DNA of 64,000 nt. Source: Candidatus Sumerlaeaceae bacterium (lineage in GTDB: Bacteria; Sumerlaeota; Sumerlaeia; Sumerlaeales; Sumerlaeaceae). The notes below the pieces were generated by a model. That model saw nothing but the letters and a program-made list of their open reading frames with translations. It was not told where the DNA came from and did no database searches. The stretch is from positions 96,001 through 160,000 of the forward strand of contig JBMFRB010000002.1 of assembly GCA_049968255.1 (NCBI GenBank), in the 5' to 3' direction. The position numbers and the translations under genes were made by a program. Numbering within the stretch: position 1 is the first letter of the stretch; every line of letters begins with the position of its first letter. Shown one piece after another: positions 16,933-40,205 of this stretch.

Positions 16933-17976
16933 TCACTCGAAGAGATTCCAATCTTTGACCGCGGTTGACCCGCTCGGCAGGAGCCATCCCGAAACGGAGT
17001 TGTTTGTGTAAAGGAACCACACGCGACCGTTTTGCGGATCAATGGCCACATCGCCTGTGCCGTTCAGATTTGCTGCAGCTCCCCCGGCTTTTTCGATCCC
17101 GCTACCAGTGACGGCGAACGGAGTATCGCTGTCGAGATCCCACACAACTCCTTTGACGTCGGTATCTCCCGCGTTCACAGAGGCAGGCGCAAGCCCCATC
17201 AACTTTTTCGCACCTTTCAACGCGACGGCCAAGGCCCCTTTGCCCGGTGTGACCGCTTTCTGACCACCTGCTGTTGCCGTGCTTCCGCTTATAGTGTACA
17301 GGACTGACGTGGTTTCTGCCGTCGACGTGTCGGCCGCTTTGCGTGCCCAAAAGTCTGTGCCGCTGGGATCCCACGCAACAAAACTCAAGCCCACAAGCCC
17401 TACGTCCAGCGTAAGTTCCTGCTTGGTGAAGGTCTGGCCGCCGTCGGTCGTCGTCAACAATGCTACGTTCGGATTTCCCATGCCGGCGATCAGGATCTTT
17501 GTCGTGTTTCCCGAACCGGTGACTGCAATCGAGTCGCCAAGGCGCACGCTTGCAGGAGTCTCGGCATAGGCAACGGTCGGAGCTGCCGTTTCGTCAGCAT
17601 ACGCGTATAAGCGGAAGTTGTTTCCAGCCAAGGCAATGTTTGAAAGGTAGATTCGGCCATCCTGCGCCACGCCGACTTTGGCGACATTCACGGTGCCACC
17701 GCCGATTCCGGTATTGTTTAGACCACTGCCAATCTCCGCGCCTGTAACGGGGTCCAACACGTGGATTTTGTTCCCCGCACCAGAATCATTGTCGGCGACG
17801 AGCACGTGGTCTGTCAGAGGATTGTAGGTCATCCCCCGTGTCTGGTTGTTGCCATTGAGCCAACTCAGCGTCCCGCCATCGTCCACCTTGAACAGCAAGG
17901 ACATTGGCTGCTGAGCCATTCCCAGCGACGTTACCGCCGCGATGAAGCCTGTCACGGCGAGAATTCGCGTTTTCAT
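16933..17976 (-). CDS. Sec-exported beta-rich (DUF4623-like/beta-propeller) protein ending ...STAVKDWNLFE
   Basis: AGGAGGAG RBS; signal peptide MKTRILAVTGFIAAVTSLGMA; G/T/A/S/N-rich; paralog of 20095-21153. The DUF4623 call is from recalled motifs (RGMTYNP, RLGDS). Confidence 0.8.
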   Translation of the reverse strand: MKTRILAVTGFIAAVTSLGMAQQPMSLLFKVDDGGTLSWLNGNNQTRGMTYNPLTDHVLVADNDSGAGNKIHVLDPVTGAEIGSGLNNTGIGGGTVNVAKVGVAQDGRIYLSNIALAGNNFRLYAYADETAAPTVAYAETPASVRLGDSIAVTGSGNTTKILIAGMGNPNVALLTTTDGGQTFTKQELTLDVGLVGLSFVAWDPSGTDFWARKAADTSTAETTSVLYTISGSTATAGGQKAVTPGKGALAVALKGAKKLMGLAPASVNAGDTDVKGVVWDLDSDTPFAVTGSGIEKAGGAAANLNGTGDVAIDPQNGRVWFLYTNNSVSGWLLPSGSTAVKDWNLFE

Positions 17977-18063
17977 CTTTGCTCTCCTCCTTTTTGAATC
18001 TGTGTGCGGCACCCCGCAAACTCGCACCGCACACAAACGGAGTAACATTGAGGCAGGTGCAGC

Positions 18064-18105
18064 ATTCAAGGAGAAAATGTAGAACGAAATTTATTACTGC
18101 ATAAA
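18064..18105 (-). promoter_or_regulatory. putative -35 element (TTGAAT) with upstream T-tract and quasi-palindromic operator
   Basis: + strand TCAAGGAGAAAATG (18066-18079) matches motifs upstream of two other DW-tail genes; TTTATTACTGCATAAA at 18090-18105. Confidence 0.55.
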
Positions 18106-18269
18106 GTGGACCAAGGTTTCTCGAAGCTCGCTTAGCTATCGCTGACTTACCCAAGGGTACTGAAAGCGTTGCATCTCCTTCAGTTCCGTACGTTCTCAGC
18201 ACGTCCGCCCACACCCAGCCACCCGCCAGCCGCGAAATGCCTGACACAGGAGGCAAAATCAATGGGTTG

Positions 18270-18304
18270 AAAAAGCAAAACGGAGCTGTGCGCGCCACAG
18301 CTCC
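18270..18304 (-). terminator. intrinsic terminator downstream of the parvulin gene
   Basis: Stem GGAGCTGTG (18282-18290) / CACAGCTCC (18296-18304), followed on the minus strand by GTTTTGCTTTTT. Confidence 0.8.
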
Positions 18305-18335
18305 AATGGGAATACGTTCTGCTGCTACTGTTTTG

Positions 18336-19919
18336 TTACTTCGGCAGCGGAATAAGGATACGCAGCTCGTGCTCGCGAGCGAAGTCGTCTATCGCCTTTT
18401 GCAGGGCTTCCCACGCTTTGCGGTTTCGGGCTTGCTCCAGGCACATGTCGCGCACTTCGTCAAACGACAGTTGGGGCTGTTCGCGCCGCGCGTCGAGCCG
18501 ATAAAATGCCACGCCGCTTTCCGTTGGCAGGTTGTTCGTCAGCGAGCCCGTCGTGATTTTCACCAGTTCGTCATCGGCTTTTGGTTCGTCGCTCGACATG
18601 GCCCAATCGGCCTGTTGCGTGACTTCTCCACCTAATTCAGTGGCCTCCGCCCTAAGCTGCTCGAGCGAAGCTTCGGGATGAGCGAGCACAAAATCTCGCA
18701 GCTTATTGAGGGCGTCGAGCGCAGTGTGCCGCGTCGGGTAGCGCACCGTCCCATATGGCACAAGGAAGCGGGTGTACTTTAAGTAGCCACCTTTGCGCAT
18801 TGCTTTGGAATATGTTGTGTAATAGGCCCGCGCGTCATCTTCCGTCGGACGAAAGCGTTCAAGATTCGTGTCGAGAAAGCAGGTGCGAGCCAGCACACGC
18901 TCGCGGAAAAAACGCTCCTTCTTCTCGCAATGCGTTGGAGTCGTCATCTCCTCCAAAATCGCCCCGGCGAGCAGCTCTTGCGTGACTGTTGTTGGGCCGA
19001 AATGCTTTGCCACCAGCTTCTGCGCCTCCTCGTTCAGCTGTTCGGCCCGCATGAGCGCGATGATGTTTTTCTGCAGATTCGGATCGCGCTCGATCGTTTC
19101 GGTCGTCAGGCGCTGCTCAGGGTAAACGTGCGCCACCCACACAATATAATAGCCGTTGTGCAAAAGCGTCGGCGAAGAAATCACGTCCTCCGGCAGCGAA
19201 AAAGCGAAATCGACAAACTTGCGGTTATAAGGCACATGGCGTGAGATCGTCCCGATGCGTCCGCCTTTCGTGCTGCTTGGCGCCTGACTGTAAAAGCGGG
19301 CCGCGTCGTCGAATCGCAGGCGATGCTCAGCGAGAAGGCGGTAGATCTCCTCCATCTCTTTCTTCACGGCCTCGCGCTCGGCTTGGGTTTTTGTCCCTGT
19401 CGTCGAGCGGAAGATATAACGCACATCGCGCATTTCCTCACGTTCGAAAGCCTTACGGTGGCGAAATCCTGCCTCGACAATCTCCGCCAGCGTCGGTGTG
19501 GTGAAGTGTGTTGCCACCTGCGTTTGCCACGCCGCGATGACGCACGGCCAGAGCAGAGGTCGCGAAATCGCACTCACCGTCGTCTCAAGGTTCGGACACA
19601 GATCGCGCGCGCGCGCCGCCATCGCTTCTTCCCATGAGCGCTCGCGTGCAATTTGCTCCACGAATGTCGCTGCATCCTTGCGCTCCGCCTCAATCGAGCC
19701 ATGCAGCGCCGTTTCCACCGGATCCGCGTATGGATAGCGAGCGGCTTGACTGTAGAGGGCAATATCCTCAGCCGTCAAGTTGCCGCCCCTCCACTGCGCC
19801 ACGTGCGTCGCCAAGAGGTCGGACGCCGCGGCTCCCGTTGCCGCTGCAACCGTCACCACACCTGCCAGCCATGTACACAGAAAACTCCAAAACAACACGT
19901 GTTTTGTGCGATCATTCAT
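18336..19919 (-). CDS. exported parvulin-type (PpiC/SurA/PrsA-like) peptidyl-prolyl isomerase/foldase
   Basis: Signal-like N-terminus; VRYIF, FDDAARFYSQAPSSTKGGRIG, FVDFAFSL...ISSP...GYYIV; second degenerate rotamase-like region ending SFDEVR. Start 19919 or 19952. Confidence 0.8.
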   Translation of the reverse strand: MNDRTKHVLFWSFLCTWLAGVVTVAAATGAAASDLLATHVAQWRGGNLTAEDIALYSQAARYPYADPVETALHGSIEAERKDAATFVEQIARERSWEEAMAARARDLCPNLETTVSAISRPLLWPCVIAAWQTQVATHFTTPTLAEIVEAGFRHRKAFEREEMRDVRYIFRSTTGTKTQAEREAVKKEMEEIYRLLAEHRLRFDDAARFYSQAPSSTKGGRIGTISRHVPYNRKFVDFAFSLPEDVISSPTLLHNGYYIVWVAHVYPEQRLTTETIERDPNLQKNIIALMRAEQLNEEAQKLVAKHFGPTTVTQELLAGAILEEMTTPTHCEKKERFFRERVLARTCFLDTNLERFRPTEDDARAYYTTYSKAMRKGGYLKYTRFLVPYGTVRYPTRHTALDALNKLRDFVLAHPEASLEQLRAEATELGGEVTQQADWAMSSDEPKADDELVKITTGSLTNNLPTESGVAFYRLDARREQPQLSFDEVRDMCLEQARNRKAWEALQKAIDDFAREHELRILIPLPK

Positions 19920-19996
19920 CACACGGAAAATCTCCCTCACAAACTTACTCAAGGCCGAGCACGCGTTACGGAGTGCTCACCACAAAAAGAGACAAG

Positions 19997-20035
19997 CAAA
20001 AAAGAAGGGGAGCGGAATGGTGCCCTTCCGCTCCC
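19997..20035 (-). terminator. intrinsic terminator downstream of the 20095-21153 gene
   Basis: Stem GGGAGCGGAA (20008-20017) / TTCCGCTCCC (20026-20035), followed on the minus strand by CTTCTTTTTT. Confidence 0.85.
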
Positions 20036-20094
20036 GTGTCTTACCTGTTTCGATCGCTCTGCCGCGAAAGCTCAGCAGAACCATCGGCGTGGAA

Positions 20095-21153
20095 TCAGTA
20101 AAGATTCCAATCGGACACACCCGAAGCAACCTCGTTGGGCAGGTTCCAAGCCGACAGCGAGTTGTTCGTGTAGAGGAAGAAGACGCGCTTATTCGTCAGG
20201 TCGATGGCCGCAGCGCCCGACCCGTTAGTGTTCCCATTGGCCCCACCGCTCTTCTCAAGTCCGCTTGCCGTTTGAGCGAGAAGAGTCTCGCTGGCAACGT
20301 GATAAACAGTCCCGAAGAGGTTTGTCGCCGAAGAGGTGGCGTTCGCAAAGGTGTTGGCAATGATCAGGTTGTTTCCTGGGGTGACCTTGACATCAAACGC
20401 GCCGACGCCCGCCAGCGTCACAAGCTTATCGCCAAAAGTAGTGTCCTTTGTGCCATTGGTGCCGCTGATCGTGTAGCGCCTCAGTGCTGGAGTTTCTGTG
20501 CCACTTGCGGCGGCCTTGCGGACGAAGAACGCCGTCGGATCCTGAGGATCCCACTTCACATAGGGAATACCGGCCAGACCGACATCCAGCGTAATGTCCT
20601 GCTTGGTGAAGGTGTTTCCGCCATCAGTCGACGTAAACACAGCCACGTTGGGATTACCGGAGCCGCCGACCAGAAGCGAAATGTTCGAACCAGAGCCCTT
20701 GACATCGGCGCTGTCGCCGTAGCGGACCGCTACGCCTGCCTCGGTATAGCTCGCCACGGGGGTCGCCGATTCATTGGCGTAAGTGTAAATCTTGAAAGTG
20801 CTGGTCGCAGCTGCGATGTTTGTCAAAAAGAGCTTGCCGTCCGAGGTGGGATTGATAAGATTCAAAATTACCGTACCGCCCGTTACTCCGGTAACGTCTA
20901 AGGCATTGGGCGATTTCTCGGCGCCAGTGGCGGGGTCAAGCCGATAGACTGCATTACTCGGCGTACGGTCGGGCACGAGCACTGTATCAGTGACTTCGTT
21001 GTAGGCCATCCCACGCGTGGTGTTGTCGTTCCCAAACCAGGCAAGCGAGCCTCCCTGGTCCACTTTCCAGATCTGGGTCATGGTGTAGGGGGGCGCGGCG
21101 AAACTTACAGCAGCTACGCTGACTGCTGTGAGGGTAAGTGCTAACTTCTTCAT
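20095..21153 (-). CDS. Sec-exported beta-rich (DUF4623-like) protein ending ...ASGVSDWNLY; paralog of 16933-17976
   Basis: GGAGG RBS; signal peptide MKKLALTLTAVSVAAVSFA; shares RGMxYN, GDS, GNPNVA, TDGGxTFTKQ, TLDVGL, RKAA and FLYTNNS with its paralog. Confidence 0.82.
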   Translation of the reverse strand: MKKLALTLTAVSVAAVSFAAPPYTMTQIWKVDQGGSLAWFGNDNTTRGMAYNEVTDTVLVPDRTPSNAVYRLDPATGAEKSPNALDVTGVTGGTVILNLINPTSDGKLFLTNIAAATSTFKIYTYANESATPVASYTEAGVAVRYGDSADVKGSGSNISLLVGGSGNPNVAVFTSTDGGNTFTKQDITLDVGLAGIPYVKWDPQDPTAFFVRKAAASGTETPALRRYTISGTNGTKDTTFGDKLVTLAGVGAFDVKVTPGNNLIIANTFANATSSATNLFGTVYHVASETLLAQTASGLEKSGGANGNTNGSGAAAIDLTNKRVFFLYTNNSLSAWNLPNEVASGVSDWNLY

Positions 21154-21246
21154 AGGTAAACCTCCACAAATGTCGTTTTGACTCGGGGAAAGTTGGCACC
21201 CACTTTCCCATTGTCTTTTTTATGCATATGTCACAATTTTGGGTGG

Positions 21247-21294
21247 CGTCAAGTAAAAAATGACGTGTAATAATAAATCTGTGCAGTAATAGAT
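21247..21294 (-). promoter_or_regulatory. putative -35 element (TTGACG) with T-tract and quasi-palindromic operator in an AT-rich divergent intergenic region
   Basis: TCAAGTAAAAAATG at 21249-21262; ATCTGTGCAGTAATAGAT at 21277-21294. Confidence 0.55.
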
Positions 21295-21335
21295 AAGTTT
21301 TGAAATGAGAATCAACAACGACGAAGAAAGGGGAA

Positions 21336-22190
21336 ATGGCCATGTTCCTGCGGCCCGAAAGACATGTTTGCTTTTTTCAGAGTTGTTTTGATGTTGTCCT
21401 GACTTTGGCCGTGGCCTGCACTCTTTGCGGTTGCCAGAGCGAGTCGCGTGAAGCTGCGGTGTCGAGTCGGGCGGCTCGGCCGCTTGCGCCGACTCCGGCT
21501 GTGTTGCTGCAGAAAACGGAATTCAGAAATGAGCCATGTGCTATTGTTCCTGTCGAAGGTGGAACCGTGACGCTCGAGATGATTTCCAGCGAAGTGCTGC
21601 GCTTGCAACTGCGCGACACAGCAGGTCGGCCTGGATCGTTCGCCACACTGGCCACCCTGGAAACGAAGGTCCCGGAAGGGACTTCCCAACCTGAGAGAAT
21701 ATTAGCATTTTATCGCCTTGTTGGAGGCTTCCCTGAAGGGCTGTACGCAAGAATCTCCGAGCCCTTTTCTGCAGCTACGTCGGGTACGTTGCACATGATG
21801 CAGCTCAATGGCTATGCGATCGGGGATTACGTGTGTCAATTGCGCTGCCCGGCGGAGGTTGCTGAAGGCGAGCAAGCACTTGCCATTCGCGACACGCTGA
21901 CCTCGCCCGCAGTCCACATAACTGCGGCGCATCAGTTCATATCCGTCCTTGAGAATCTCGCTGCGGATGGCCCTGCAGAGCACATCCCGCAGGTGCTCGA
22001 TCTCATGCTCCGCTACTTGCACAGCTCGGCGGAGCTCACCCAAGGTGCGACGGCGGCAGCATTTTCCGAAGCGGCGAGCGCAGCGGCAGAATTCCGAGCA
22101 AAGGTCTCCCCCCAAGGCCAATTCCCCGCGAACGAGTTCGAACAATTCCGCGACCGACTCAATGAGCTTCTGCAGCATGCGCAAAAATAG
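21336..22190 (+). CDS. hypothetical lipoprotein
   Basis: GGGG RBS-like sequence; hydrophobic stretch ending in lipobox-like LCGC. Confidence 0.65.
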   Translation: MAMFLRPERHVCFFQSCFDVVLTLAVACTLCGCQSESREAAVSSRAARPLAPTPAVLLQKTEFRNEPCAIVPVEGGTVTLEMISSEVLRLQLRDTAGRPGSFATLATLETKVPEGTSQPERILAFYRLVGGFPEGLYARISEPFSAATSGTLHMMQLNGYAIGDYVCQLRCPAEVAEGEQALAIRDTLTSPAVHITAAHQFISVLENLAADGPAEHIPQVLDLMLRYLHSSAELTQGATAAAFSEAASAAAEFRAKVSPQGQFPANEFEQFRDRLNELLQHAQK

Positions 22191-22260
22191 CGGGCGTGCG
22201 GCGGCGCGTGTCAGTATGTGGCGCAAGAGGTTGTGGCCTCAGCGTGCGTGAGGAATTGCG

Positions 22261-23601
22261 TCAGTCTTCGTGACCGGAAGCGGAGCGAGTTGATCCACTC
22301 TTTTCTTCGGCTAGTACGTGATCGTAGATAGACTGGACGTGAACGAGGAACTGTGAGGGATCAAAGCATGCTTCGAGATCCGTCGGGGAGAGCACGGCAG
22401 TGGCTCGCGGATCTTTTTCCAAATTGCTGCGTAGCGTCGTAGCCTCATCCTCCCATGTCCTCATGGCCGCGCGCTGCACAACGTCGTACGCTTCCTCACG
22501 CGTGAGGCCGCGGTCAACAAGCGCAAGTAGCACGCGCTGCGAAAAGATCAGCCCGCGTGTGAGATTGAGATTTTTCGCCATCTGGGTAGGATAGTAATGG
22601 AGTCTTTCGAGTACCTGGCGCGCCGAGCGCAGCATGTAGTGGAGCACGGTTGTCGAATCGGGAAGGATAACGCGCTCCGTGGAGGAGTGGCTGATGTCGC
22701 GTTCGTGCCACAGGGCGTTATTTTCCAATGCGGTGGCCGCGTAGCCGCGCAGGAGTCGCGCGAGGCCCGTGAGCTGCTCGCACTTCACGGGATTGCGCTT
22801 GTGAGGCATGGCGCTCGACCCCTTTTGGCCTGCCGCAAAAGGTTCTTCTAGCTCGCGAACCTCGGTGCGCTGGAGGTGACGGATCTCGGTAGCAATTTTT
22901 TCGATCGTCGAGCCGCAAATGGCCAGTGCGCACAGCAACTCGGCGTGGCGATCGCGCTGGATGACCTGCGTGGCAACCCTGGCGCGACCGATTCCCAGCT
23001 TTTCGCACACACGCCTCTCGATTTCCGGGCCAGTGTGCGCGTAAGTGCCCACGGCTCCGGAAATTTTTCCTACTGCAACGCGGCGAAACGCTGCTTCCAA
23101 TCGGTGAGCGTTGCGCCCCATTTCGTCGTAATAAAGCAAAAATTTTAATCCTAACACAATCGGCTCTGCATGCACGCCGTGGGTTCGCCCGACAATCACT
23201 TGGTTCTTGTGCTCGAGGGCAAGCCGCCGAAGCGTTGCGCGTAGCTCGGCGACTTCAGTCAGGATGAGCTCACCGGCCCGTTTGAGGCGCACGGCCTGGG
23301 CGGTGTCCACGACGTCGTTCGAGGTCAGCCCCATGTGCACAAAGCGCGAGGCAGGGCCAATGTGTTCGGCCAGGCATGTGGTGAAAGCAACCACGTCATG
23401 GTGGACCGTCTTCTCGATTTCTTCGATTCGCGCGACATCAAAACGCGCGCCGGCTTTGATCTCTTGTAATGCCTCGGTGGGAATGCGCCCGAGCTCGTGC
23501 CATGCCTCGCATGCCGCAAGCTCGACTTCGAGCCAGGTTTGGAATTTTCTCTCCTCGCTCCACAGCGCCGACATCTCGGGGGTAGAATAGCGGGGAATCA
23601 C
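22261..23601 (-). CDS. purB: adenylosuccinate lyase
   Basis: IPRYS start (GTG overlapping the purN stop), HDVVAF, GRTHGVHAEP, GSSAMPHKRNP, WHERDISHSS. Confidence 0.97.
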   Translation of the reverse strand: MIPRYSTPEMSALWSEERKFQTWLEVELAACEAWHELGRIPTEALQEIKAGARFDVARIEEIEKTVHHDVVAFTTCLAEHIGPASRFVHMGLTSNDVVDTAQAVRLKRAGELILTEVAELRATLRRLALEHKNQVIVGRTHGVHAEPIVLGLKFLLYYDEMGRNAHRLEAAFRRVAVGKISGAVGTYAHTGPEIERRVCEKLGIGRARVATQVIQRDRHAELLCALAICGSTIEKIATEIRHLQRTEVRELEEPFAAGQKGSSAMPHKRNPVKCEQLTGLARLLRGYAATALENNALWHERDISHSSTERVILPDSTTVLHYMLRSARQVLERLHYYPTQMAKNLNLTRGLIFSQRVLLALVDRGLTREEAYDVVQRAAMRTWEDEATTLRSNLEKDPRATAVLSPTDLEACFDPSQFLVHVQSIYDHVLAEEKSGSTRSASGHED

Positions 23602-24260
23602 GTTGTGCTCGCTCCTTTGTCGCTCAGGGTTTCGTCGAGGAATCGGACAACTCGTTGCTCTATGCGCCACTGGCGCTCGGTTACGGCCTTAAGCGCCTCG
23701 GCATACGCCTGATGCTCCTGCTCAAGGATTCGCGCAGCCAGGCTCTCCTCTGTGTCATTGTCCATGACGGGCACGCATCGCTGCACGATGATGGGACCAG
23801 TGTCCATGCCCGCATCCACGAAATGAACCGTGCAGCCAGAAACTTTCACGCCGTATTCCAGCGCCTGGCGTTGGGCGTGAAGGCCGGGGAAGGCCGGCAG
23901 AAGCGCTGGGTGGATGTTGAGGATTCGTTCGGAGTAGCGTTCGAGAAGTGTGGGGCCGACAAGCCGCATGTAACCGGCAAGCGCCACCCAGGTGATTGCG
24001 TACGATTCGAGAATCGCGACGATGGCTTTCTCAAACTGTTCTTTCGAGGCGAAATCTTTGCGCAGCACCACATGGGACGGCACGCCAAAGCGCTGCGCGA
24101 TCTGGAGCGCGCCAGCATCGCTTTTATCCACAATAAGGCAGGCGATGTGAGCTTTGCGGAAAAACCCATCGCGTTCGTGGCGCAAGAGAGCTTCGAAGTT
24201 TGACCCTCGGCCCGAAGCCAGCACGCCAACCTGAACCTTTTCCCTGTTGTCTGGCGTCAT
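23598..24260 (-). CDS. purN: phosphoribosylglycinamide formyltransferase
   Basis: ASGRGSN, LAGYMR, NIHPALLPAFPG, GCTVHFVDAGMDTGPII. Confidence 0.97.
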   Translation of the reverse strand: MTPDNREKVQVGVLASGRGSNFEALLRHERDGFFRKAHIACLIVDKSDAGALQIAQRFGVPSHVVLRKDFASKEQFEKAIVAILESYAITWVALAGYMRLVGPTLLERYSERILNIHPALLPAFPGLHAQRQALEYGVKVSGCTVHFVDAGMDTGPIIVQRCVPVMDNDTEESLAARILEQEHQAYAEALKAVTERQWRIEQRVVRFLDETLSDKGASTT

Positions 24261-24360
24261 TTGTCCTCTCGGATCACCGATATACTACCGTGCGCCTCCA
24301 CTGCAGCATGCTCATCCGCACTGGGACGCAGCGCTGCTTTCTGTGGGAATTTGCGCCCCC

Positions 24361-24789
24361 CTAGTGGGTGTGAAAATGAGGCAGGCGAGCATCGTAGTCC
24401 CGCAGGAGATCGCCGTGAACTGTGCAGCGCGGGAGCTCACCCACTTTGCCGATGACATATTCGCCGCCGCTGGGGCAGCGTGGCACATTCACAGGCGCGC
24501 GCACGGTGTCGTCATCGCACGGGGCGCGACGTCCATAGTCATAGCGGCGAAGGTACTTGTGAGCCAACACCTCAGCGCTGGGCGCCTTTGTGCCGGGACG
24601 TGCTCCCGTTTCGCGAGCCCACTCTTCTTTTGCGTCCAGCAAGCGTTCAAGGTTATAGAGACAAATCTGCTCGCGTCCTTCTGCGGTGGATAAAGGTGGA
24701 TCCACGGGATGCTTCCAGTTTGGGGCGAGCGCACAACCACTGAGTGCAAGCACTGCCACTGCCATCGACATGATCTTCCAATGTGTCAT
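24361..24789 (-). CDS. lipoprotein with a pilin/pseudopilin-like disulfide globular domain
   Basis: Lipobox LSGC; CLYNLERLLDAKEEWA...PRCPSGGEY...PRCTVHG. Confidence 0.7.
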   Translation of the reverse strand: MTHWKIMSMAVAVLALSGCALAPNWKHPVDPPLSTAEGREQICLYNLERLLDAKEEWARETGARPGTKAPSAEVLAHKYLRRYDYGRRAPCDDDTVRAPVNVPRCPSGGEYVIGKVGELPRCTVHGDLLRDYDARLPHFHTH

Positions 24790-24889
24790 CTTCGAGATCC
24801 CTCACAAAACTAACAATTGCACAAACACTTTCCACCGCTTGCTGATCACATATTCAGCCGCGCTGTGTTGGCGCAACAGAATTTCGCCG

Positions 24890-25741
24890 CTACGCCACAC
24901 TGATGTCTTCCGAGCGCGCGGCGAGCAAAAACTCGTGCGAAACAGCCATGCCCGCCTGAATGGCTGTCTGGAGCTGTTCATCGTTTTCGTAGGGGTTGGC
25001 GGATATAATGTAGGCGCGCACGTGATCACGGAGATTTTTGCGGAAGGGAAGGGGCTCAATTTCCAGGCCGAATTTGCCATTGGGCCGCCGGACGGTCAGT
25101 TGATCGACTGCCGCCAGATAGGGCACATTTGCGATTGTTGTAGTTCCCTGAAAATCGGTGCAGAGCAGGATGGAGAGGGCGTCGCAAACTTCGAGCAAAC
25201 GGACGTCGTCCTCAAACGTGCCACCAACGGGCACACTCGCTAGCGAGGCGGTGGCGGTATCATTTGGATTTGTGGGCAGAGCTTCTTCGAGGCTCTCAGC
25301 ACGTTTCTCTAATTCGCGGCTCCATGTTTTCAGCCGATGTTCCTGTTCAGCGAGGAATTTTCCGAGCGCCACCGCTTCGCGCGGGCTCAATCGTGCAATC
25401 TCCGATTCGCCTAGCGCACGCTTGACGAAGTATTGTGCAACTACGCATGCGCCATAAAGCAAGCCCTGCTCGGCGATCAGGGCCACGCTACGTGACCAAA
25501 TCGCATAATGTTCCGCCTTGGGCATTTCGAGGAAAGAGCGCGGCTCACCTCGCCCGTTGAGATGCGGCGTTGCGTCATATTCGGCCCAACCGTCATCGTG
25601 CATGGCGATGGCTTTAATGACCTCGCCGTTCGGGCGAACCGGCGAAAATTTCCACGCTGCCGCAATCACCCCGGCCACACGCGCGTGCTCGGCCTGCGGC
25701 ACAAGCATCCATTTGTCTTTTCCCCACCGGCGACGGATCAT
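24890..25741 (-). CDS. DUF3891-family protein
   Basis: MIRR...QAEHARVAG...AIAMHDDGW...CDALSILLC. Confidence 0.8.
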   Translation of the reverse strand: MIRRRWGKDKWMLVPQAEHARVAGVIAAAWKFSPVRPNGEVIKAIAMHDDGWAEYDATPHLNGRGEPRSFLEMPKAEHYAIWSRSVALIAEQGLLYGACVVAQYFVKRALGESEIARLSPREAVALGKFLAEQEHRLKTWSRELEKRAESLEEALPTNPNDTATASLASVPVGGTFEDDVRLLEVCDALSILLCTDFQGTTTIANVPYLAAVDQLTVRRPNGKFGLEIEPLPFRKNLRDHVRAYIISANPYENDEQLQTAIQAGMAVSHEFLLAARSEDISVA

Positions 25742-25825
25742 CGCATTATCCCGAAGTTAGGTATCTCAGAATCGAGAGAAAACATTGCTCAGCGAGAATC
25801 AAGCGTCAAGAAACGGAAGCACATT

Positions 25826-33217: not shown

Positions 33218-33240
33218 GAAGACCCTTTCCGTGAGTCACT

Positions 33241-34386
33241 TTAGTGAGTGCAAAAAATGGTGACCCTGTTTCCGCTGCGACTAGTCACTCGCAGCTGAAA
33301 TGCCTGAAAATCCTGGAGGGCGCGGTCGAGAGCCGAAAAATCTCGCGGTGTCGCCAGCGCGACCACCGCAGTGTTACCGAAATAACTCCTTACGAAGGCG
33401 CGAGTGCCGTAACCCAACGTGTTTTCAAGGTAAGACGTAACCAGCGCGAGTTCGTCGAGCGACAGGTCGGTAAATAGCAATTCATGCGAGGCTTTGGCTC
33501 GGACCGCATGGTTCCAATACATTTGGATTTCTGAGCCAAACCGGTCTGCTGCGAGGTCGATAGCATTCTTCAGAGCTTCGCGCCAAGCGGTCTCTCTTTC
33601 CTTGTCCGCTGCCCGTGCTACAACTTCGTCGCGCCCTAAGGAGGATCCGTCGTCGGTTCTCACTAACTGAAGGACTAGACGAGTTTCATAAGACACCATG
33701 GTGTCGTAGAGTACGGGCGTTTCGCTCACTTTTTTGCTGATGCTGCGTAGGGCAACCATAACGTGGGCACCCTGGCGTAGTGCAGCAATTCTCGCTGCAT
33801 CAAACACTGCGGGACACGCAAAGACATCGGAAAGCGGAGCTGGACAAGTGGGCAGAGATGGCTCGACGACTTTTGCCCCCTTAGCCTTGAATTTCTCGGT
33901 CACGAGCTGGCGTGCTAGACCCGATGACGTCGGCTCACCATCTAGTATTTCAGCGGCGTAAACAAAATAGCTTGGGTTTGCATCGGGGAGATACAAAAAC
34001 CTTTTTTCCCGCAAATCGCGCGTCAGTGTTTCCGGCATGGTTTGCACCCTAATCCGCACGCCGAAACCATCGCGCGAAGCGCGGCGCTCAAGCACATAGG
34101 AAGAGGCAACGAATTTAGGCCAGTTTTTCTGAAGATAAGCTTCCAGCAAGTCACGTCCCTGGAGAGCGTAATCCGAAAAAAGGATATGTCCTACTGTGGC
34201 ATTCACGGCCCTGAGACAAGCGAGCCTTACGGCTTCCTCCTCCGTGGCACCAACTTGCTGATACTCAAAGGTGAGGTAATCAGGGCTTTCCACTGCTACA
34301 GCAGCGAAACCTGTAGGCCGCACGCAAACAAGTGCAAAAAAGAGAAGTGCAAGTTGCCACTTCCGCTGTATGATATACTCATTCAT
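33241..34386 (-). CDS. exported hypothetical protein (FlgT-N/LPP20-like N-terminus)
   Basis: Signal peptide; GATEEEAVRLACLRAV; co-oriented just upstream of TolC. Confidence 0.6.
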   Translation of the reverse strand: MNEYIIQRKWQLALLFFALVCVRPTGFAAVAVESPDYLTFEYQQVGATEEEAVRLACLRAVNATVGHILFSDYALQGRDLLEAYLQKNWPKFVASSYVLERRASRDGFGVRIRVQTMPETLTRDLREKRFLYLPDANPSYFVYAAEILDGEPTSSGLARQLVTEKFKAKGAKVVEPSLPTCPAPLSDVFACPAVFDAARIAALRQGAHVMVALRSISKKVSETPVLYDTMVSYETRLVLQLVRTDDGSSLGRDEVVARAADKERETAWREALKNAIDLAADRFGSEIQMYWNHAVRAKASHELLFTDLSLDELALVTSYLENTLGYGTRAFVRSYFGNTAVVALATPRDFSALDRALQDFQAFQLRVTSRSGNRVTIFCTH

Positions 34387-34516
34387 GATTGTCCCATCCA
34401 GCTCCAGCAGAATCAAACTGCGGTATCTTAGAACTTTCCAAGACAACGTGAACGTGGCATCCGCTCAAGGGTCAAGCACAATTACCTACGTCCTGCGGCA
34501 GCTCCCTGCGATGTGG

Positions 34517-35287
34517 TCATTTGCAGCGCGGCAGTCGCAGGTCGCTTACAAGCGGCCGGTGATCTGATGCCACGCGCGCAAGTGATTTGCGCGATACATA
34601 GCAGCGCATGACTTCAATCTCAGGCGAGACATAGATGTAATCAAGAGCGAGGAACGTCATTGGATGACCGAACGTTCGAAGCCGTTTGCGGCCAGTGACG
34701 AGGCAGGTATTGCGAAAAGCCTCTTGCAGCTTTTTGCTGGTGCGAACAGGCCACCAGTTATTGAAATCTCCCAACACGATGGCGGGGGCTGGTGTTAGGC
34801 GCGGATTGTGGATGATTTCCTCGCTTGCCAAACGTGCCACTTGTTCGCGGCGTTCACTGTAGCGCAGACCCAAATGTACACAAAAGACATGCACGAGGCC
34901 CCACGGTGTCTCGATGAGAGCGTGAAGACATCCCCGTGGTTCTCGGCCACCCGCCACGGAGAGATCGAAATGCGAAGTCGACCGAATGGGGAATCTCGAG
35001 AGAATGGCGTTGCCATAGGCCGCGTGCGCGTGCTTGTCTGATTTGCGGTGGTCGCGTACGGGCGCAAAACAATAGTACATGTCAAGTGTTTCAGCCAGCA
35101 AACGGGGCTGATCATCGCGCCGGGAACGAGAACGGAAACGCTCAATTTCTTGCAAAGCGACAACGTCGGGGCTTTCGCTGGCTAGGACTGCCGCAATCCG
35201 AGAAAGGTCGTAGTGACCGTCGGTGCCACAACCGTGGTGGATGTTATAGGTTAGTACCCGAAGCGTCTCTTGTTCCGGCTCGGCCAT
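34517..35287 (-). CDS. endonuclease/exonuclease/phosphatase (EEP, YbhP-like) family protein
   Basis: LTYNIH, ALQE, GNAILSR, HLGL, GDFN, LDYIY, SDH. Start uncertain (35287 or 35350). Confidence 0.9.
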   Translation of the reverse strand: MAEPEQETLRVLTYNIHHGCGTDGHYDLSRIAAVLASESPDVVALQEIERFRSRSRRDDQPRLLAETLDMYYCFAPVRDHRKSDKHAHAAYGNAILSRFPIRSTSHFDLSVAGGREPRGCLHALIETPWGLVHVFCVHLGLRYSERREQVARLASEEIIHNPRLTPAPAIVLGDFNNWWPVRTSKKLQEAFRNTCLVTGRKRLRTFGHPMTFLALDYIYVSPEIEVMRCYVSRKSLARVASDHRPLVSDLRLPRCK

Positions 35288-35395
35288 TGCTGAGCCGCTC
35301 GGTTTATGCTGCGGATGACGCAGGTTTTTCAGCGGACTTTGTATGTTCATCGCGCCAAACTCTATTCTTACCAACCTCGTGGAGGAAAACGTCAC

Positions 35396-36682
35396 GTGTG
35401 TGCACAGCCCTCGTTGCTTGCGTGGCAAAAGGCACTCACCATCACCGCGAATCATTCGCCGGAGCCCTCCCCAGTAACGATGCCGCTCGTTGCGGCCCAC
35501 GGTCTGGTGATTGCGGAGGACGTTGTATCTGCGCAAGATATTCCTCTATTCACCAGCTCTGCCATGGACGGCTTCGCTGTGATTGCCGATGACGTGAAGG
35601 GAGCCTCGCTCGAATCCGCCGTTACTCTGGAAGTGATCGGAGAAGCGCGAGCTGGTCAACCGTTCCGAGGTGAGGTGGAACACGGTCAGGCGGTGGAGAT
35701 CATGACGGGAGCACCATTACCGGCTGGGGCTGACACGGTTGTCAAGGTCGAGGAAACGCAGCGAATAAGCGAGCGCCAAGTGAGAATTTTTTCAGCAGCT
35801 CCGCCTGCGACAGCGGTCAGAATAGCGGGACGGGATTTTCGCAAAGGTGAGTTGCTGGTCCACCGCGGGGAAAAGCTCACGGCCGGCTTGGCAGCGCTTT
35901 TGGCTGCGGCTGGAATCGGTGAAGTTGCGGTTTATCCGCGACCAAAAGTCGGCATCGTCGTCACTGGCGATGAACTGATGCGACCGGGCAGAAATCGCGC
36001 TCAGATGGAATTTGGTGCTATCTTTGACGCCAACTCCGTCATGCTCGAACTTCTAGTGAAAGAAATCGGGGCTGATGTGATCTTCTGCGAGTGGGTGAAA
36101 GACGATCCTGGGGCTTTGTCCGATGTGTTTCGCAGCCAACGAGGCGATTATGACATACTTATCCTTTCGGGCGGCGTTTCGAAAGGCAAATATGACTATG
36201 TTCGCCCACTCTTCTCTGACTGCGGGGGGGAAGTGCTTTTTTGGGGTGTGAATCAGCAGCCAGGCAAGCCCCTGTTAGTTGGAAAGCTAGATGGCAAGCT
36301 AGTCTTCGGGCTTCCGGGCAATCCTGTCTCCGCTTTCTTCTGTGCGGATCTTTATTTGCGCACAGCTTTGCGGCGGATGAGTGGGGAATCCGACGTTGAG
36401 CCGATCATGGTTACTGTCCTCCTGGGCGAAGAACTTTGCAAAAATGATGAGAGATTGGCATTTCGCCGCGCATACCTCAGTGCTAGGGGGAAACGGGTGA
36501 TTGCCTATGCCTCAGGCCCCTCAGACTCAAATCTTGTTCACACGATCGCCCGTCATCATGGATACATCTTGATTCCGCCGGAAAGGGCTCGAATTCGTCA
36601 AGACGAGCCCGTGCAGTTTTTGCTCCCCGACCCGACGCGGGTGCCGAAGGAACTTTTGAAAACATTGCTTAGTCTCGTGTAA
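35396..36682 (+). CDS. moeA: molybdopterin molybdenumtransferase
   Basis: SAMDGFA, IMTGAPLP, TGDEL, SGGVSKG, PGKP, LPGNP; GGAGG RBS before GTG 35396. Confidence 0.95.
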   Translation: MCAQPSLLAWQKALTITANHSPEPSPVTMPLVAAHGLVIAEDVVSAQDIPLFTSSAMDGFAVIADDVKGASLESAVTLEVIGEARAGQPFRGEVEHGQAVEIMTGAPLPAGADTVVKVEETQRISERQVRIFSAAPPATAVRIAGRDFRKGELLVHRGEKLTAGLAALLAAAGIGEVAVYPRPKVGIVVTGDELMRPGRNRAQMEFGAIFDANSVMLELLVKEIGADVIFCEWVKDDPGALSDVFRSQRGDYDILILSGGVSKGKYDYVRPLFSDCGGEVLFWGVNQQPGKPLLVGKLDGKLVFGLPGNPVSAFFCADLYLRTALRRMSGESDVEPIMVTVLLGEELCKNDERLAFRRAYLSARGKRVIAYASGPSDSNLVHTIARHHGYILIPPERARIRQDEPVQFLLPDPTRVPKELLKTLLSLV

Positions 36683-36758
36683 AAATTCTTCTGGTAAGCC
36701 AAAGAGTGGGTCTTGCGCTTTAGAGCGTCAGCGGCCGCTTAGAAAATGAGGAACACGA

Positions 36759-37064
36759 ATGGAAAACGAAGCTGGTAATGTCCGGCGCGGACGTTCAAAA
36801 AAGCAAGAGGTGCCGGTTGATCAACTCCCACTCGACAAGTGTTTCCAAGAGTTGGAGCAAATTGTAGAGTCATTGGAGCGGGAGAATGTATCGCTAGAGG
36901 AATCTCTGCGATTGTTCGAGCGTGGAATGGCCCTCAGTCGCCGCTGCCTGCGAGAATTGGAGGCTATTGAACAGCGGATTGAAATGATTGTGGAGGATTC
37001 CAAGGAAGGGGTGCGAACGGTAACTTTTGAAACGCCTGAGAACGAAACCGAAGCTGATGAATAG
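36759..37064 (+). CDS. xseB: exodeoxyribonuclease VII small subunit
   Basis: LEQIVESLE...LEESLRLFERG; directly upstream of dxs. Confidence 0.9.
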   Translation: MENEAGNVRRGRSKKQEVPVDQLPLDKCFQELEQIVESLERENVSLEESLRLFERGMALSRRCLRELEAIEQRIEMIVEDSKEGVRTVTFETPENETEADE

Positions 37065-37133
37065 GATACCTCGCCATGGCAGCGATTGTGGTGCCTAACG
37101 TAGTGTTCGCAACTCAATGCTCCTGAGGATAAC

Positions 37134-39062
37134 ATGCTAGAACTTGAACATCTCGAGTCACCGGAACAGATTCGTCACGCTGATTTCAAAACTCTCGAAC
37201 AGCTGGCCCGGCAGATCCGCCGGCGCATCATCGAGACCGTTGCGGTCAATGGTGGGCATTTGGCATCCTCGCTAGGCACAGTCGAACTCGCCATTGCATT
37301 ACATTACGTGTTTCAGACGCCGCAGGATTTGCTCATCTGGGATGTTGGGCATCAAGCCTATCCCCACAAATTACTCACCGGGCGCGCGAAGTCATTTTCG
37401 ACACTCCGCAAACGCGGGGGGCTCAGTGGATTTCTTCGGCGTTCCGAGAGTCCTTTCGACGTTTTCGGAGCGGGACACGCGGGGACATCCATCAGTGCGG
37501 CGCTTGGATTGGCCTTGGCGCGTGATCTCAGGGGCGAAAAGCACAAAGTTGTTGCCGTCATCGGTGACGGCTCCCTTACATGCGGCCTTCCTTTTGAAGG
37601 CCTCAACAATGCCGGGCATTTGGGGACAGATCTCGTCGTTGTGCTCAACGACAACGAAATGTCCATTAGTGGAAACGTAGGCGCATTGGCCAAATACCTG
37701 AACCTGCTGGTTCAGTCGCGCCTCTACAATAAATCGAAAGAGGAAGCGTATGCGCTTGTTCGGCGCGCGCCCGCAGGCGACAGGATCATTCGCCTCGTGC
37801 ATAAGCTCGAAGAAAGCACGAAAGGGTTGCTCGTTCCCTCAATTTTCTTCGAGGATCTAGGCTTCCGCTATGTCGGCCCGATTGATGGGCATAATGTGGA
37901 GGAGTTGATTAGAACATTCCAGCGCGTGCGCGAATGGCAAGGGCCGGTGCTCGTTCATGTTCTCACGAAAAAAGGCAAAGGGTACAGTCAGGCCGAAGGC
38001 GACGCTGTATTTTGGCACTCGCCACCATCGTTCAAGGTCGAAACCGGCGAGACGAAAAAGAGTAGTACGCTCACCTACACGCACGTTTACGGCAAGACGT
38101 TAGTTGAGTTGGCGGAACAAGACGAGCGTGTAGTGGCCATTACGGCTGCCATGGCTACTGGCACGGGACTTGTCGAATTCAGCCAGAAATTTCCAAAACG
38201 TTTTTTCGATGTGGGGATTGCGGAAGCCCACGCCGTAACAAGTGCCGCGGGAATGGCTATCGGGGGTCTGCGCCCTTTTGTGACGATTTACTCAACGTTC
38301 CTCCAACGGGCTTTCGATTCCATTGTCCATGATGTTGCTCTGCAGAATCTGCCTGTCATTTTTGCCATGGATCGCGCTGGGTTCGTCGGATTCGATGGCC
38401 CTACGCATCATGGGCTCCTCGACATCGCGTACCTGCGTATCATCCCCAACATGGTCGTCATGGCCCCCAAGGATGAGCAGGAGTTGCGCGACATGATGTT
38501 GACAGCGAAAAATTACACGGCAGGCCCGATTGCATTCCGTTACCCCCGGGCTTCAGTGACAGGAGCGGACATCACCGGCCCGCCCAAGGAGATCCCCATC
38601 GGCAAAGCTGAACTTGTCCGCGAAGGTCGGTCTGGAGTTTGCATACTTAGTTACGGACACATTTATCCGAACGTGATGGCTGCTGCCAACTTGCTTGCTG
38701 AGCACGGGCTTGACGCCACAATTATCAATGCCCGTTTTGCCAAGCCGCTGGATCGCCAAATGCTGCAATGGGCGGCGAAGCATCATGCGTTCCTGTTCAG
38801 CGTCGAAGAGGGGGTTCTGGCCGGAGGATTTGGGTCAGCGGTCAATGAAGCACTCATAGAAATGGGACTGACAGCCAATTGCCAGATTTTTGCCGTGCCG
38901 GACCTATTTATGGAGCATGGGGACCAAGCCTGGCAGCAAGATCTCGTTGGCTTGTCGCCGGAAAAAATTGCCCAGCGGATACTCGAGACGGTTAGGTCTG
39001 CAGGGGAGAGATTTTCTTTTGGTGCGCCGCAAGCTGTTTCGGTTTCCTCGCCTCAGCGCTAG
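37134..39062 (+). CDS. dxs: 1-deoxy-D-xylulose-5-phosphate synthase
   Basis: GGHLASSLG, WDVGHQAY, GDG...NDNEMSI, GPIDGH, DVGIAE, DGPTHHG. Confidence 0.98.
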   Translation: MLELEHLESPEQIRHADFKTLEQLARQIRRRIIETVAVNGGHLASSLGTVELAIALHYVFQTPQDLLIWDVGHQAYPHKLLTGRAKSFSTLRKRGGLSGFLRRSESPFDVFGAGHAGTSISAALGLALARDLRGEKHKVVAVIGDGSLTCGLPFEGLNNAGHLGTDLVVVLNDNEMSISGNVGALAKYLNLLVQSRLYNKSKEEAYALVRRAPAGDRIIRLVHKLEESTKGLLVPSIFFEDLGFRYVGPIDGHNVEELIRTFQRVREWQGPVLVHVLTKKGKGYSQAEGDAVFWHSPPSFKVETGETKKSSTLTYTHVYGKTLVELAEQDERVVAITAAMATGTGLVEFSQKFPKRFFDVGIAEAHAVTSAAGMAIGGLRPFVTIYSTFLQRAFDSIVHDVALQNLPVIFAMDRAGFVGFDGPTHHGLLDIAYLRIIPNMVVMAPKDEQELRDMMLTAKNYTAGPIAFRYPRASVTGADITGPPKEIPIGKAELVREGRSGVCILSYGHIYPNVMAAANLLAEHGLDATIINARFAKPLDRQMLQWAAKHHAFLFSVEEGVLAGGFGSAVNEALIEMGLTANCQIFAVPDLFMEHGDQAWQQDLVGLSPEKIAQRILETVRSAGERFSFGAPQAVSVSSPQR

Positions 39063-39153
39063 ACGTCAGTTAGCTCTTCTGGCGGGGGAATTTTCCGTGT
39101 CGGGGGTGTGGGTGCAAAGTGCTACACCTTAGTTTGGCTCGGATTGTTCATAG

Positions 39154-39185
39154 AAAAAGGCCGCTTGTCACACGGCAAGCGGCCT
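39154..39185 (-). terminator. intrinsic terminator downstream of the 39216-40205 gene
   Basis: Stem AGGCCGCTTG (39158-39167) / CAAGCGGCCT (39176-39185), followed by a T-run on the minus strand. Confidence 0.85.
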
Positions 39186-39215
39186 GAGTATTTACGACAT
39201 CCGGTGTATAAGCTC

Positions 39216-40205
39216 TTACTGGAAGAGCTGCCAATCGCTAGCGGCTGTTGAGGGAACGACGTCGGTAATCTTGAAATTGTCAAACAACATGAAAGACTCA
39301 CCCGGTGGATTAGACCAACTCGAGAACGGGTCCCCAGCGATAAGACCCACTTTTTTCTCGGTCTTGGAACTCGACACCGTGACAATTGGATAGCCATTGA
39401 TGTAGAAGGTTACATTTGAGCCCCGTACAGAGGCACGGATTGTGTTCCACAGCCACCCTGCCACATTGCCCAATGTCCGTCCAGCAGGAGGCGCCAGGAC
39501 AAAGCTAAACTGGGTGTTGAAATCATGAGAGACAAATGGCGACGGATCGCCGGCCTGGAACGTCCCGGTCTGACCGTTGAGAGTCGCGGTCGGGCCACCG
39601 GTTCTTGCTGCTGGATCATAGCAGAAAATATCCGTGGCGCTTTCGCCGTTCTCACCATTGAAGCCGAACGCGAGCCCGTCCTGAGGATAGCTGCTGGCGG
39701 TAGTAGAGAGATCAGCATATGCCGGGTTGGTGCCCCACACGCCAAATGCGGGGTTGCATCCGCTCAGAGCGTTGTTGCGCAGTCCTCGAATGCCATTGCC
39801 ATTGCTCTGAATGACAATACCGATATGCTCAGTGGTTCCGCCGGCAGGGGATGAAATTGGATACGCGATGAATGCGTCCACTTCCACGTCATAGTTGGAC
39901 GTCAGCGGCACTGCCGTGCACCACACAGTGACGCCTTCTTGGTAGTTAGTCGTGTCGTTGGTGTTGTTAGATTCAATTTTCAAGCCAATTGTGTCTCCGT
40001 GTGGAGATGCAGGAATTGTTGTGTAGCCGGTACCGGCGGGAGCAGTGTCCGTGCCCCAGTTGTACCCGAACGTCACAGTATTGTCTGGCGTTTGGGTTGT
40101 GACGAAATCACTCCCGGCGGAATTCATTCCGCTGGAGATGACGACTGTGTCGCTCCATCCCAAAAGTGGAAGGCCGGCGAGAAGTGCTAGAAATGTTGTT
40201 CTCAT
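39216..40205 (-). CDS. Sec-exported beta-sandwich (ConA-like) protein ending ...STAASDWQLFQ
   Basis: GGAGG RBS; signal peptide MRTTFLALLAGLPLLGWS; T/G/N/S-rich; WNTI...VTFYING...FDNFKIT pattern. Confidence 0.8.
   Translation of the reverse strand: MRTTFLALLAGLPLLGWSDTVVISSGMNSAGSDFVTTQTPDNTVTFGYNWGTDTAPAGTGYTTIPASPHGDTIGLKIESNNTNDTTNYQEGVTVWCTAVPLTSNYDVEVDAFIAYPISSPAGGTTEHIGIVIQSNGNGIRGLRNNALSGCNPAFGVWGTNPAYADLSTTASSYPQDGLAFGFNGENGESATDIFCYDPAARTGGPTATLNGQTGTFQAGDPSPFVSHDFNTQFSFVLAPPAGRTLGNVAGWLWNTIRASVRGSNVTFYINGYPIVTVSSSKTEKKVGLIAGDPFSSWSNPPGESFMLFDNFKITDVVPSTAASDWQLFQ

Follow-up and report, generated by a model that had tools for sequence, protein, structure and literature searches.

A portable nine-residue C-terminal tail on exported proteins of Sumerlaeota and Hinthialibacterota, a probable sorting or anchoring tag

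The stretch analysed here (the window) comprises 64,000 nucleotides from the genome of a Candidatus Sumerlaeaceae bacterium (contig C2:96001-160000 of genome G000), and three of its genes, all on the minus strand, encode proteins that end in nearly the same short C-terminal tail. The first gene (16933..17976, 347 aa) encodes a DUF4623-like beta-propeller paralogue ending ...LLPSGSTAVKDWNLFE, for which no family was found above cut-off in Pfam or NCBIfam; its tail, TAVKDWNLFE, occupies 16933..16965 with the stop codon and fits the logo [AST]-x-V-x-[DE]-W-x-[LV]-[YF]-(x). The second gene (20095..21153, 352 aa, protein P0001) encodes its paralogue, with 45% identity, and ends SGVSDWNLY (20095..20124 with the stop codon). 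The third gene (39216..40205, 329 aa, protein P0015) encodes a lectin-like jelly-roll body and ends TAASDWQLFQ (39216..39248 with the stop codon), its W325 being invariant in 12 homologues. The coordinates, the strand and the three endings given in the initial annotation were all confirmed, and these three ORFs (open reading frames) are the only motif matches that contig C2 has in the window. As read from the sequence, all three N-termini run from basic through hydrophobic to small-x-small residues, as in Sec signal peptides. Probable signal peptides, with approximate limits, lie on the minus strand at 17911..17976 (MKTRILAVTGFIAAVTSLGMAQ...; sequence reading with a hydrophobicity and AxA rule), 21094..21153 (MKKLALTLTAVSVAAVSFA...) and 40152..40205 (MRTTFLALLAGLPLLGWS...), the latter two called by a home-made rule. 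Between the two tagged paralogues, at 18339-19952 on the minus strand, lies a gene for a 538-aa membrane-anchored parvulin of the PpiC type (SurA/PpiD-like).

AlphaFold models cover the second and third proteins. P0001 was predicted as a beta-propeller (AF2, mean predicted local distance difference test score (pLDDT) of 90.2) with DUF4623 structure 4ftd as its best solved match (Foldseek E = 1.4e-11); its last strand spans residues 332-337, and the tail residues 348-352, as well as residues 1-17 in the region of the signal peptide, have a pLDDT below 50. The model of P0015 (mean pLDDT 70.4) retrieved lectin-type folds (Foldseek E of about 1e-6, TM of about 0.4), with a last strand at residues 305-315 and tail residues 323-329 again below 50. 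The possibility that the tail is an integral strand of the folded body had been raised at the outset, and in both modelled proteins the tail is instead predicted to lie outside the body fold. Consistent with the initial annotation, the third body is unrelated to the two paralogues, since BLASTP of protein 3 against P0001 gave E = 0.44 and the predicted folds differ.

Whether such endings arise by chance was addressed in the whole genome (3.12 Mb, 31 contigs, 95.75% completeness), from which 10369 stop-to-stop ORFs of at least 100 aa were derived. The core [DEN]-W-x-[LV]-[FY] was found no more than one residue from the C-terminus in 21 of these, against 0.29 expected from its 30 internal occurrences in 2.16 million residues, so the motif is neither rare nor a chance product. 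The fuller form V-x-[DE]-W-x-[LV]-[FY] had no internal occurrence in the 987018 residues of this genome's likely genes, and no internal copy that would hint at a parent domain was found there. At the level of DNA, a pattern for V-x-[DE]-W-x-L-[YF]-stop gave 12 genome matches and none for the reversed control; codons vary among the copies, which places the conservation in the protein rather than in a DNA repeat. Anchored on the tryptophan, the logo of the 20 carriers that are likely genes reads [A/S/T] (19/20)-x-V (14/20)-x-[D/E/N]-W-x-[L/V]-[Y/F], where D/E/N, W, L/V and Y/F were covered by the selection rule, whilst V at -3 and A/S/T at -5 were outside it. The aromatic residue is the last one in 12 carriers and is followed by E in five, Q in two and D in one, such that no more than four residues, and no hydrophobic stretch, follow the tryptophan in the carriers of this genome. 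Upstream of the motif is a linker rich in Pro, Ser, Thr and Ala, with weakly conserved positions and with a length and sequence that vary between carriers.

The carriers are exported proteins. A strict home-made rule, which asks for a positively charged n-region, nine hydrophobic residues without charge and a small-x-small site but allows no membrane helix further on, called a signal peptide in 17 of the 20 carriers and in 379 (15.5%) of the 2444 remaining likely genes (p = 1.7e-11, Fisher), which bears out the enrichment proposed earlier, with this rule standing in for SignalP. One of the three remaining carriers is truncated by a contig end, and the other two appear signal-peptide-like under a looser rule, which is too permissive in that it passes 42% of the background. 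Cargo identified with Pfam includes a GH57 enzyme with CBM53/CBM25, a GH18 protein, an S8 subtilase with a P-domain, a polysaccharide deacetylase with Golvesin_C, a Kelch propeller and an fn3 protein, together with below-threshold matches to CBM11, the X25 pullulanase domain and an alpha/beta-hydrolase fold; seven carriers matched no Pfam family. This set resembles the proteins that other bacteria direct to the cell surface.

With the tail found on at least 12 unrelated Pfam architectures, the portability that the initial annotation had suggested from three genes holds. It also bears on the view that the tail is a structural last strand or cap, recurring by descent from a common C-terminal domain. 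Golvesin_C does directly precede the tail in one carrier (L010) and in a protein with the second tail variant described below (L174), as this view would have it. The bodies are nevertheless unrelated in sequence and fold, the linker varies, homologous bodies occur without the tail or with other signals, and the tail is disordered in both models; we therefore disfavour a structural origin and regard it as very improbable.

Comparison of homologues showed that the tail is conserved at its junction with the body and that known sorting signals can take its place. Among the 14 homologue matches of the propeller family, orthologues of P0001 retain the tail down to 34% identity (P0012, ...AGVSDWNLF). 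In this family the junction reads ...NNSxSxWxLP, and the chain then continues with the tag or with VVPEPGTWALLGAG...RRRA (P0013, PF07589), or simply stops (P0011); in P0013, precomputed as PF07589 in Pfam, VVPEPGTWALLGAGSLLLAWSVRRRA stands at this same junction after ...NN[SG]I.[AG][WF]. A second family, that of the protein at locus L002, has 51 matches and a body that ends DELRVxTSWxDVT. The tag is kept in 31 of its 44 closer homologues, with W in 31/31, V in 30/31, D in 30/31 and Y/F in 31/31, whilst about a dozen homologues carry the second short tail at the junction instead. Three others (P0073-75) carry a domain of about 100 residues there that scored as PF18962, and two (P0076-77) carry VPEP followed by a hydrophobic helix and an RRR end (PF07589), as does P0078 by eye. 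We take PF07589 and TIGR02595 to represent PEP-CTERM, PF18962 and TIGR04183 the sorting domain of type IX secretion (T9SS; Por_Secre_tail), and PF13731 the WxL domain. The swapping of tails, which the initial annotation had suggested as unverified, was thus recovered for both PEP-CTERM (P0013, P0076-77) and the T9SS domain (P0073-75) at the same junction of homologous bodies. The family of protein 3 keeps AASDWQLF[Q/E], and its distant members end AEHWS[IL]Y[R/Q]. Source names of the homologues included Candidatus Sumerlaeaceae, Sumerlaeia and Sumerlaea chitinivorans.

To our knowledge, prokaryotic C-terminal sorting signals are of two kinds, either tripartite (a motif, a membrane helix and a basic end, handled by membrane-embedded sortase-like enzymes) or a whole folded domain, as in T9SS. 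No described sorting model matched the tail: NCBIfam searches with the last 50 residues of 18 carriers returned a single irrelevant flagellar match at E up to 10, and Pfam and NCBIfam searches with whole carrier proteins returned no sorting model. The tag resembles PEP-CTERM and the other tripartite signals (LPXTG, GlyGly-CTERM, PGF-CTERM, MYXO-CTERM) in being exclusively C-terminal on Sec-exported proteins, in its many copies per genome on unrelated bodies, in its restriction to certain lineages and in the Pro-containing junction that precedes it, and in homologues it takes the exact position of PEP-CTERM (P0013, P0076-78). Tripartite sorting domains are defined by a membrane helix and an Arg cluster (bioRxiv 10.1101/2023.06.07.544157). 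The tag is about nine residues long rather than 20-30 and has neither element: in this genome Y/F is either the last residue of the tail or is followed by E, Q or D, and a single R, K or Q may come after it in families f2, f4 and f8 (families of Sumerlaeota are numbered with the prefix f). With no membrane helix and no basic cluster, the tag cannot undergo the intramembrane sortase-type handling to which tripartite signals are subject.

The exosortase model PF09721 had no match in the own genome (95.75% complete) and, within Sumerlaeota, was found in f8 (7/7 genomes) and f1 (2/12 genomes) only, f8 being a family where tag and exosortase coexist. A scan for a C-terminal helix with a basic tail selected 85 of 2469 genes, which were read as ordinary membrane proteins and included no PEP-type signature and no tag carrier. 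The T9SS C-terminal domain (CTD) model TIGR04183 gave one weak match in each of 10/75 Sumerlaeota genomes and none in the own genome, whilst the SprA model TIGR04189 had no match in the own genome but none in all 14 control genomes either. Exosortase and the T9SS CTD, considered as an alternative explanation, were set aside, as neither accounts for the pattern of the tag. The tag is like the T9SS CTD in that it labels secreted hydrolases and lectin-like proteins for a step after Sec in a diderm, and the two swap in distant homologues of the L002 family; the CTD, however, is a folded beta-sandwich domain of 70-100 residues, as opposed to nine residues that are disordered in the models.

Other C-terminal signals offer more distant parallels. 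The C-terminal beta-signal of outer-membrane barrels and the Y-x-F tails read by DegS are aromatic C-terminal signals, and the tag likewise has an aromatic residue at or next to the C-terminus of a protein exposed to the periplasm, where it may plausibly be read together with the free end. Its carriers are soluble propellers, lectins and enzymes rather than barrels, its hydrophobic residues do not alternate, and one extra residue is tolerated. The eukaryotic targeting peptides PTS1 (SKL-COOH, read by the TPR (tetratricopeptide repeat) domain of PEX5) and KDEL lie at the extreme C-terminus, and the tag shares with them the form of a very short, unstructured, free peptide on a folded cargo that a soluble receptor could read. 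Domain of life, compartment and sequence all differ, so this is an analogy of mechanism and not a homology. The WxL domain of Firmicutes exceeds 150 residues, contains two WxL motifs and attaches proteins non-covalently to the surface of monoderm bacteria. It has the W-x-L motif and surface association in common with the tag, which is far shorter, occurs in a diderm host and gave no Pfam match to that domain in 21 carriers.

The tag might also be thought a decayed PEP-CTERM remnant that lost its helix and basic end and is kept by descent without function. The tryptophan of the PEP-CTERM region of P0013 (VVPEPGTWALLG...) does align with that of the tag, and a set of histidine kinase, sigma-54 regulator, GT4 and FemAB-like genes, somewhat like those of PEP-CTERM-associated loci, is present in a genome that is exosortase-negative. 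Conservation brings this explanation close to refuted, and we hold it to be highly improbable: W, V, D, L and Y are near-invariant across two phyla and dozens of unrelated proteins whilst the linker drifts, the strictly terminal position is unexpected for a remnant, and f8 combines an exosortase in 7/7 genomes with abundant W-x-L-Y-[R/Q/K] tails (11-14 in three genomes). The gene set itself (C2:29483-36508 of G000; locus L020 2504-9505) comprises genes for a histidine kinase with GAF, a sigma-54 response regulator, a glycosyltransferase (GT4), an acetyltransferase of FemAB-like type and a small protein of unknown kind. After it comes a gene whose product matches GspG and IPT/TIG weakly and has the ending ...ACDWMLYD. 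We take this arrangement to be reminiscent of PEP-CTERM-associated regulator loci, in a genome with no exosortase match.

The tag has a wide range within Sumerlaeota. The strict pattern was matched in 50/75 genomes of the phylum, with 7-19 matches in each of 12 other genomes from the family of the window and with controls near zero. A variant pattern, A-x-x-W-x-Phi-Y-[R/Q/K/N/H]-stop, was matched in 53/75 genomes, including families missed by the strict pattern; for instance, a subtilase of genome G005 (f4) ends ...ARAWELYR. Per genome, the variant had 5 and 5 matches in f2, 7 and 11 in f4 and, in three genomes of f8, 11-14, whilst one genome of f7 had 3 and one of f16 had 5. With both patterns, 13 of the 18 families have at least one genome with at least three matches and a control of at most one, and families with little or no tag were f3 and f5 (one genome each, no match) and f6, f14 and f18 (at most two matches). 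At the level of sequence patterns the tag is therefore close to phylum-wide in Sumerlaeota, with a lineage-specific last residue, and because it is so widespread, presence/absence profiling within the phylum cannot single out a reader. No homologues of the propeller family were found in ten genomes of f2, f4, f7, f8 and f16, and a subtilase query in five genomes gave three matches in two of them.

A wider scan applied a stricter pattern to one genome per species for 185,579 species, counting a match as terminal when it ended in a true stop with 45 or more open codons upstream of it. There were 113 matches, 44 of them ORF-terminal: 25 in genomes labelled Sumerlaeota, two in 'Hinthialibacteria OLB16', one labelled Omnitrophota, ten unlabelled and six from other taxa. 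The last six look like chance, comprising four from Acinetobacter (one shared out-of-frame stretch), one from Chloroflexi and one from Lactiplantibacillus. Five non-Sumerlaeota genomes had 6-12 matches each, and all five belong to one second phylum, that of genome G078, where the pattern was present in 34/35 genomes with up to 28 matches and with controls of 0-3. Of the 13 terminal matches in OLB16, Omnitrophota-labelled or unlabelled records, four could be assigned to that phylum. Linked through the OLB16 locus L102, this phylum is Candidatus Hinthialibacterota, which is a separate phylum in the NCBI taxonomy. PMC9324843 describes it as degrading complex polymers and as having once been assigned to Omnitrophota. 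Signal-peptide-like starts were present in 11 of 12 tagged ORFs from loci of two Hinthialibacterota genomes, with cargo that includes CBM9-like proteins, beta-lactamase-family hydrolases and periplasmic-binding-protein-like domains. The proposal of a lineage-specific signal thus stands insofar as the tag is almost absent elsewhere, and requires amendment in that it spans two candidate phyla rather than one lineage, with a last residue that varies by lineage.

A second short tail was present in the same genome. Five proteins end [LV]-P-x-x-[LV]-[SA]-x-[WF]-x-[VIL]-E-COOH, three of which pass the strict signal-peptide rule, and their genes lie at C1:130926-131987 (-), C1:118386-120971 (-), C4:115051-115815 (+), C4:241266-244103 (-) and C8:83538-84599 (-) of G000 (loci L019 and L173-L176). 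The cargo consists of an Endonuclease I with a lamin-tail domain (LTD), an FAD oxidoreductase with Golvesin_C, an Exo_endo_phos nuclease/phosphatase and two unknown proteins. Enrichment of the corresponding DNA pattern was seen in f1, with up to 9 matches, in some genomes of f8, with 22, 10 and 5, and in a single f11 genome, with 10. Its start, L-P-V-x-L-S-x-W, resembles what we take to be the IPTL-CTERM signature (I-P-T-L-S-E-W), which is a lead only; the second tail ends three residues after the aromatic residue, and the helix and basic end of IPTL-CTERM are absent by inspection. Aligned on the aromatic residue, both tails share Phi-x-x-[W/F]-x-Phi-[Y/F/E] at the end, and because they also replace one another within the L002 family, they may share a reader.

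Taken together, these observations incline us, with somewhat better than even confidence, towards reading the tail as a portable C-terminal sorting or anchoring tag of about nine residues that acts after Sec export. Since the tag stands where PEP-CTERM and the T9SS domain stand on homologous bodies, the most economical view is that it does the same kind of job by a different mechanism. A carrier would be exported by Sec to the periplasm of a diderm cell, where its body would fold and leave the tail exposed on the flexible Pro/Ser/Thr/Ala linker. A conserved envelope component would then bind the tail, at its free end or close to it, and would either route the cargo to the surface of the cell or beyond, or retain it there. 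With a tag that has no membrane helix, such a reader would be soluble or located in the outer membrane. Crossing of the outer membrane and retention at the surface appear about equally probable within this reading.

Several points weigh against a sorting or anchoring role. The signal peptides were called by a home-made rule and not by SignalP. P0011, an orthologue in the same phylum, has a chain that stops at the junction with no tail. The optional residue after the aromatic one may be acidic, amide or basic according to lineage, so the free carboxylate is not at a fixed offset. Some of the Hinthialibacterota cargo belongs to families that are usually periplasmic (Peripla_BP_6/ANF_receptor, beta-lactamase family), and an extracellular destination is accordingly not assured. 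No reader or processing enzyme was found in searches of gene neighbourhoods, the PDZ inventory, the secretins, exosortase and the T9SS CTD. The PDZ proteins were all of ordinary types (two HtrA, one S41 CtpA, RseP and one radical-SAM protein). The neighbourhoods compared were those of 20 tag genes of the own genome, with five genes to either side, and those of a further 20 from four distant genomes (G023, G029, G036 and G046; 20 loci of 12-20 kb). They shared only common families at about chance level, namely histidine kinases, sigma-54 regulators, GT4/GT2 glycosyltransferases, ABC ATPases and GspG-like pseudopilins.

Of the 21 pseudopilin genes in the genome, 2 lie within two genes of a tag gene compared with about 0.7 expected, which was treated as chance. 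These 21 pseudopilin-like genes of G000 are paralogous (e.g. C4:188980-189708, C5:256439-257131 and C7:169738-171216) and encode near-identical prepilin-type N-termini (GFTLIELLIVVAIIAILAAIAVPNFLEAQ), many of them with Y-D-P-T-N-G-T-V-S-x-G-D near the end.

An extreme C-terminus of hydrophobic and aromatic character, preceded by a flexible linker, would also suit a C-terminal pro-peptide or quality-control handle that is bound by the PDZ domain of a periplasmic S41 or HtrA protease and serves maturation or degradation rather than as an address. Ctp-type proteases trim short C-terminal extensions, DegS-type PDZ domains read the aromatic C-termini of outer-membrane proteins, and the genome encodes one S41 CtpA-like PDZ protease and two HtrA-type proteases. 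Such proteases are near-universal, though, whereas the tag is confined to two phyla. What replaces the tag in homologues, PEP-CTERM or the T9SS domain, serves sorting and is not a pro-peptide. For PDZ ligands, it is unusual that a basic or acidic residue comes after the aromatic one, and no link between protease genes and tag genes was found. We accordingly consider a pro-peptide or quality-control handle unlikely.

The cargo of enzymes and lectins is of the sort that other bacteria tether to their surface, and a docking peptide, with no role in crossing, might clip the exported protein non-covalently onto a scaffold, surface layer, pilus or polysaccharide, for instance by strand addition in the manner of a minimal dockerin. 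Conserved residues on both faces of an extended peptide would fit such docking, as would the second tail, which shares Phi-x-x-aromatic-x-Phi with the first and swaps with it within one family. On the other side, no scaffold with a matching incomplete domain turned up, no systematic search having been made; the motif is never internal in the genome, leaving no parent domain evident, and the tag genes have no conserved neighbour. Docking of this kind overlaps in practice with the anchoring half of a sorting or anchoring role, and as a separate explanation it appears quite unlikely.

A sorting or anchoring tag of this kind would be read in a diderm envelope, for which the own genome encodes Omp85, a TolC-type protein in the window and three secretins. 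It also has a classical type II secretion system cluster (GspF, H, J, K, an L/M-like protein and GspD) and a PilQ system. The third secretin, of 1576 aa, has N-terminal TPR repeats and a long lineage-specific periplasmic region, adjoins an Amuc_1101-like PilM gene, and is encoded outside the window on the plus strand (C2:23566-28293 of G000; locus L160 5566-10293). Its periplasmic region was found in 70/75 Sumerlaeota, 34/35 Hinthialibacterota and 0/5 genomes of other phyla, and had 300 matches in 1.84 billion representative proteins (E up to 0.001). This co-distribution with the tag is a lead and not evidence, given that only two, possibly related, clades are involved. It could reflect shared ancestry alone, and the fused TPR could equally be a pilotin-like module, for which reasons the secretin was not accepted as the reader. 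A complex prediction with secretin residues 640-1060 and the last 42 residues of protein 2, run without controls, gave a score of 0.00 and a mark of 0.32, which speaks neither for nor against it. It is possible, though we think it doubtful, that a secretin-type outer-membrane translocon uses the tag as its export signal, the first of a linear, extreme-C-terminal kind. In these bacteria, which have no T9SS-type cargo and for the most part lack an exosortase, folded enzymes would then be recognized by the nine-residue peptide and pass through a machine built on a secretin, with the long secretin as one candidate; were this so, type-II-like secretion would gain a readable address for the first time.

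The tag is probably an undescribed, non-tripartite C-terminal sorting or anchoring signal with an architecture that implies a new mechanism of reading. No description of it was found in a literature search that left supplements and subscription journals outside its scope and in which a peptide motif could not be searched as words. In the accessible portions of the two phylum papers (PMC8092238 and PMC9324843) the terms 'C-terminal' and 'sorting' occur 0 times, and Sumerlaeota or BRC1 is not mentioned in the accessible portion of the Haft preprint. A helix-free tag of nine residues in place of known signals would imply that cargo is read differently in this envelope, by a machine that nobody has named. 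It would also mark what is probably the set of surface or secreted proteins in two uncultured phyla of polymer degraders, including chitinases, amylase-type enzymes, proteases, nucleases and lectins, and so provide a simple sequence rule for predicting the enzymes that Sumerlaeota and Hinthialibacterota deploy outside the cell. As a defined peptide, the tag could be used as bait for its reader, and its lineage-varying last residue offers a handle for co-variation.

Other features were observed in passing. Within the window, the plus strand at 53459-55648 encodes a protein of 730 aa that combines a calcineurin-like metallophosphoesterase domain with a PQQ-type beta-propeller. Elsewhere in G000, at C5:432-6640 (locus L158 435-6583), there is a type I-E-like CRISPR-Cas operon with no Cas3 among the genes scanned, in which Cas5 has a C-terminal HNH nuclease domain and Cse1 is apparently fused to Cse2.

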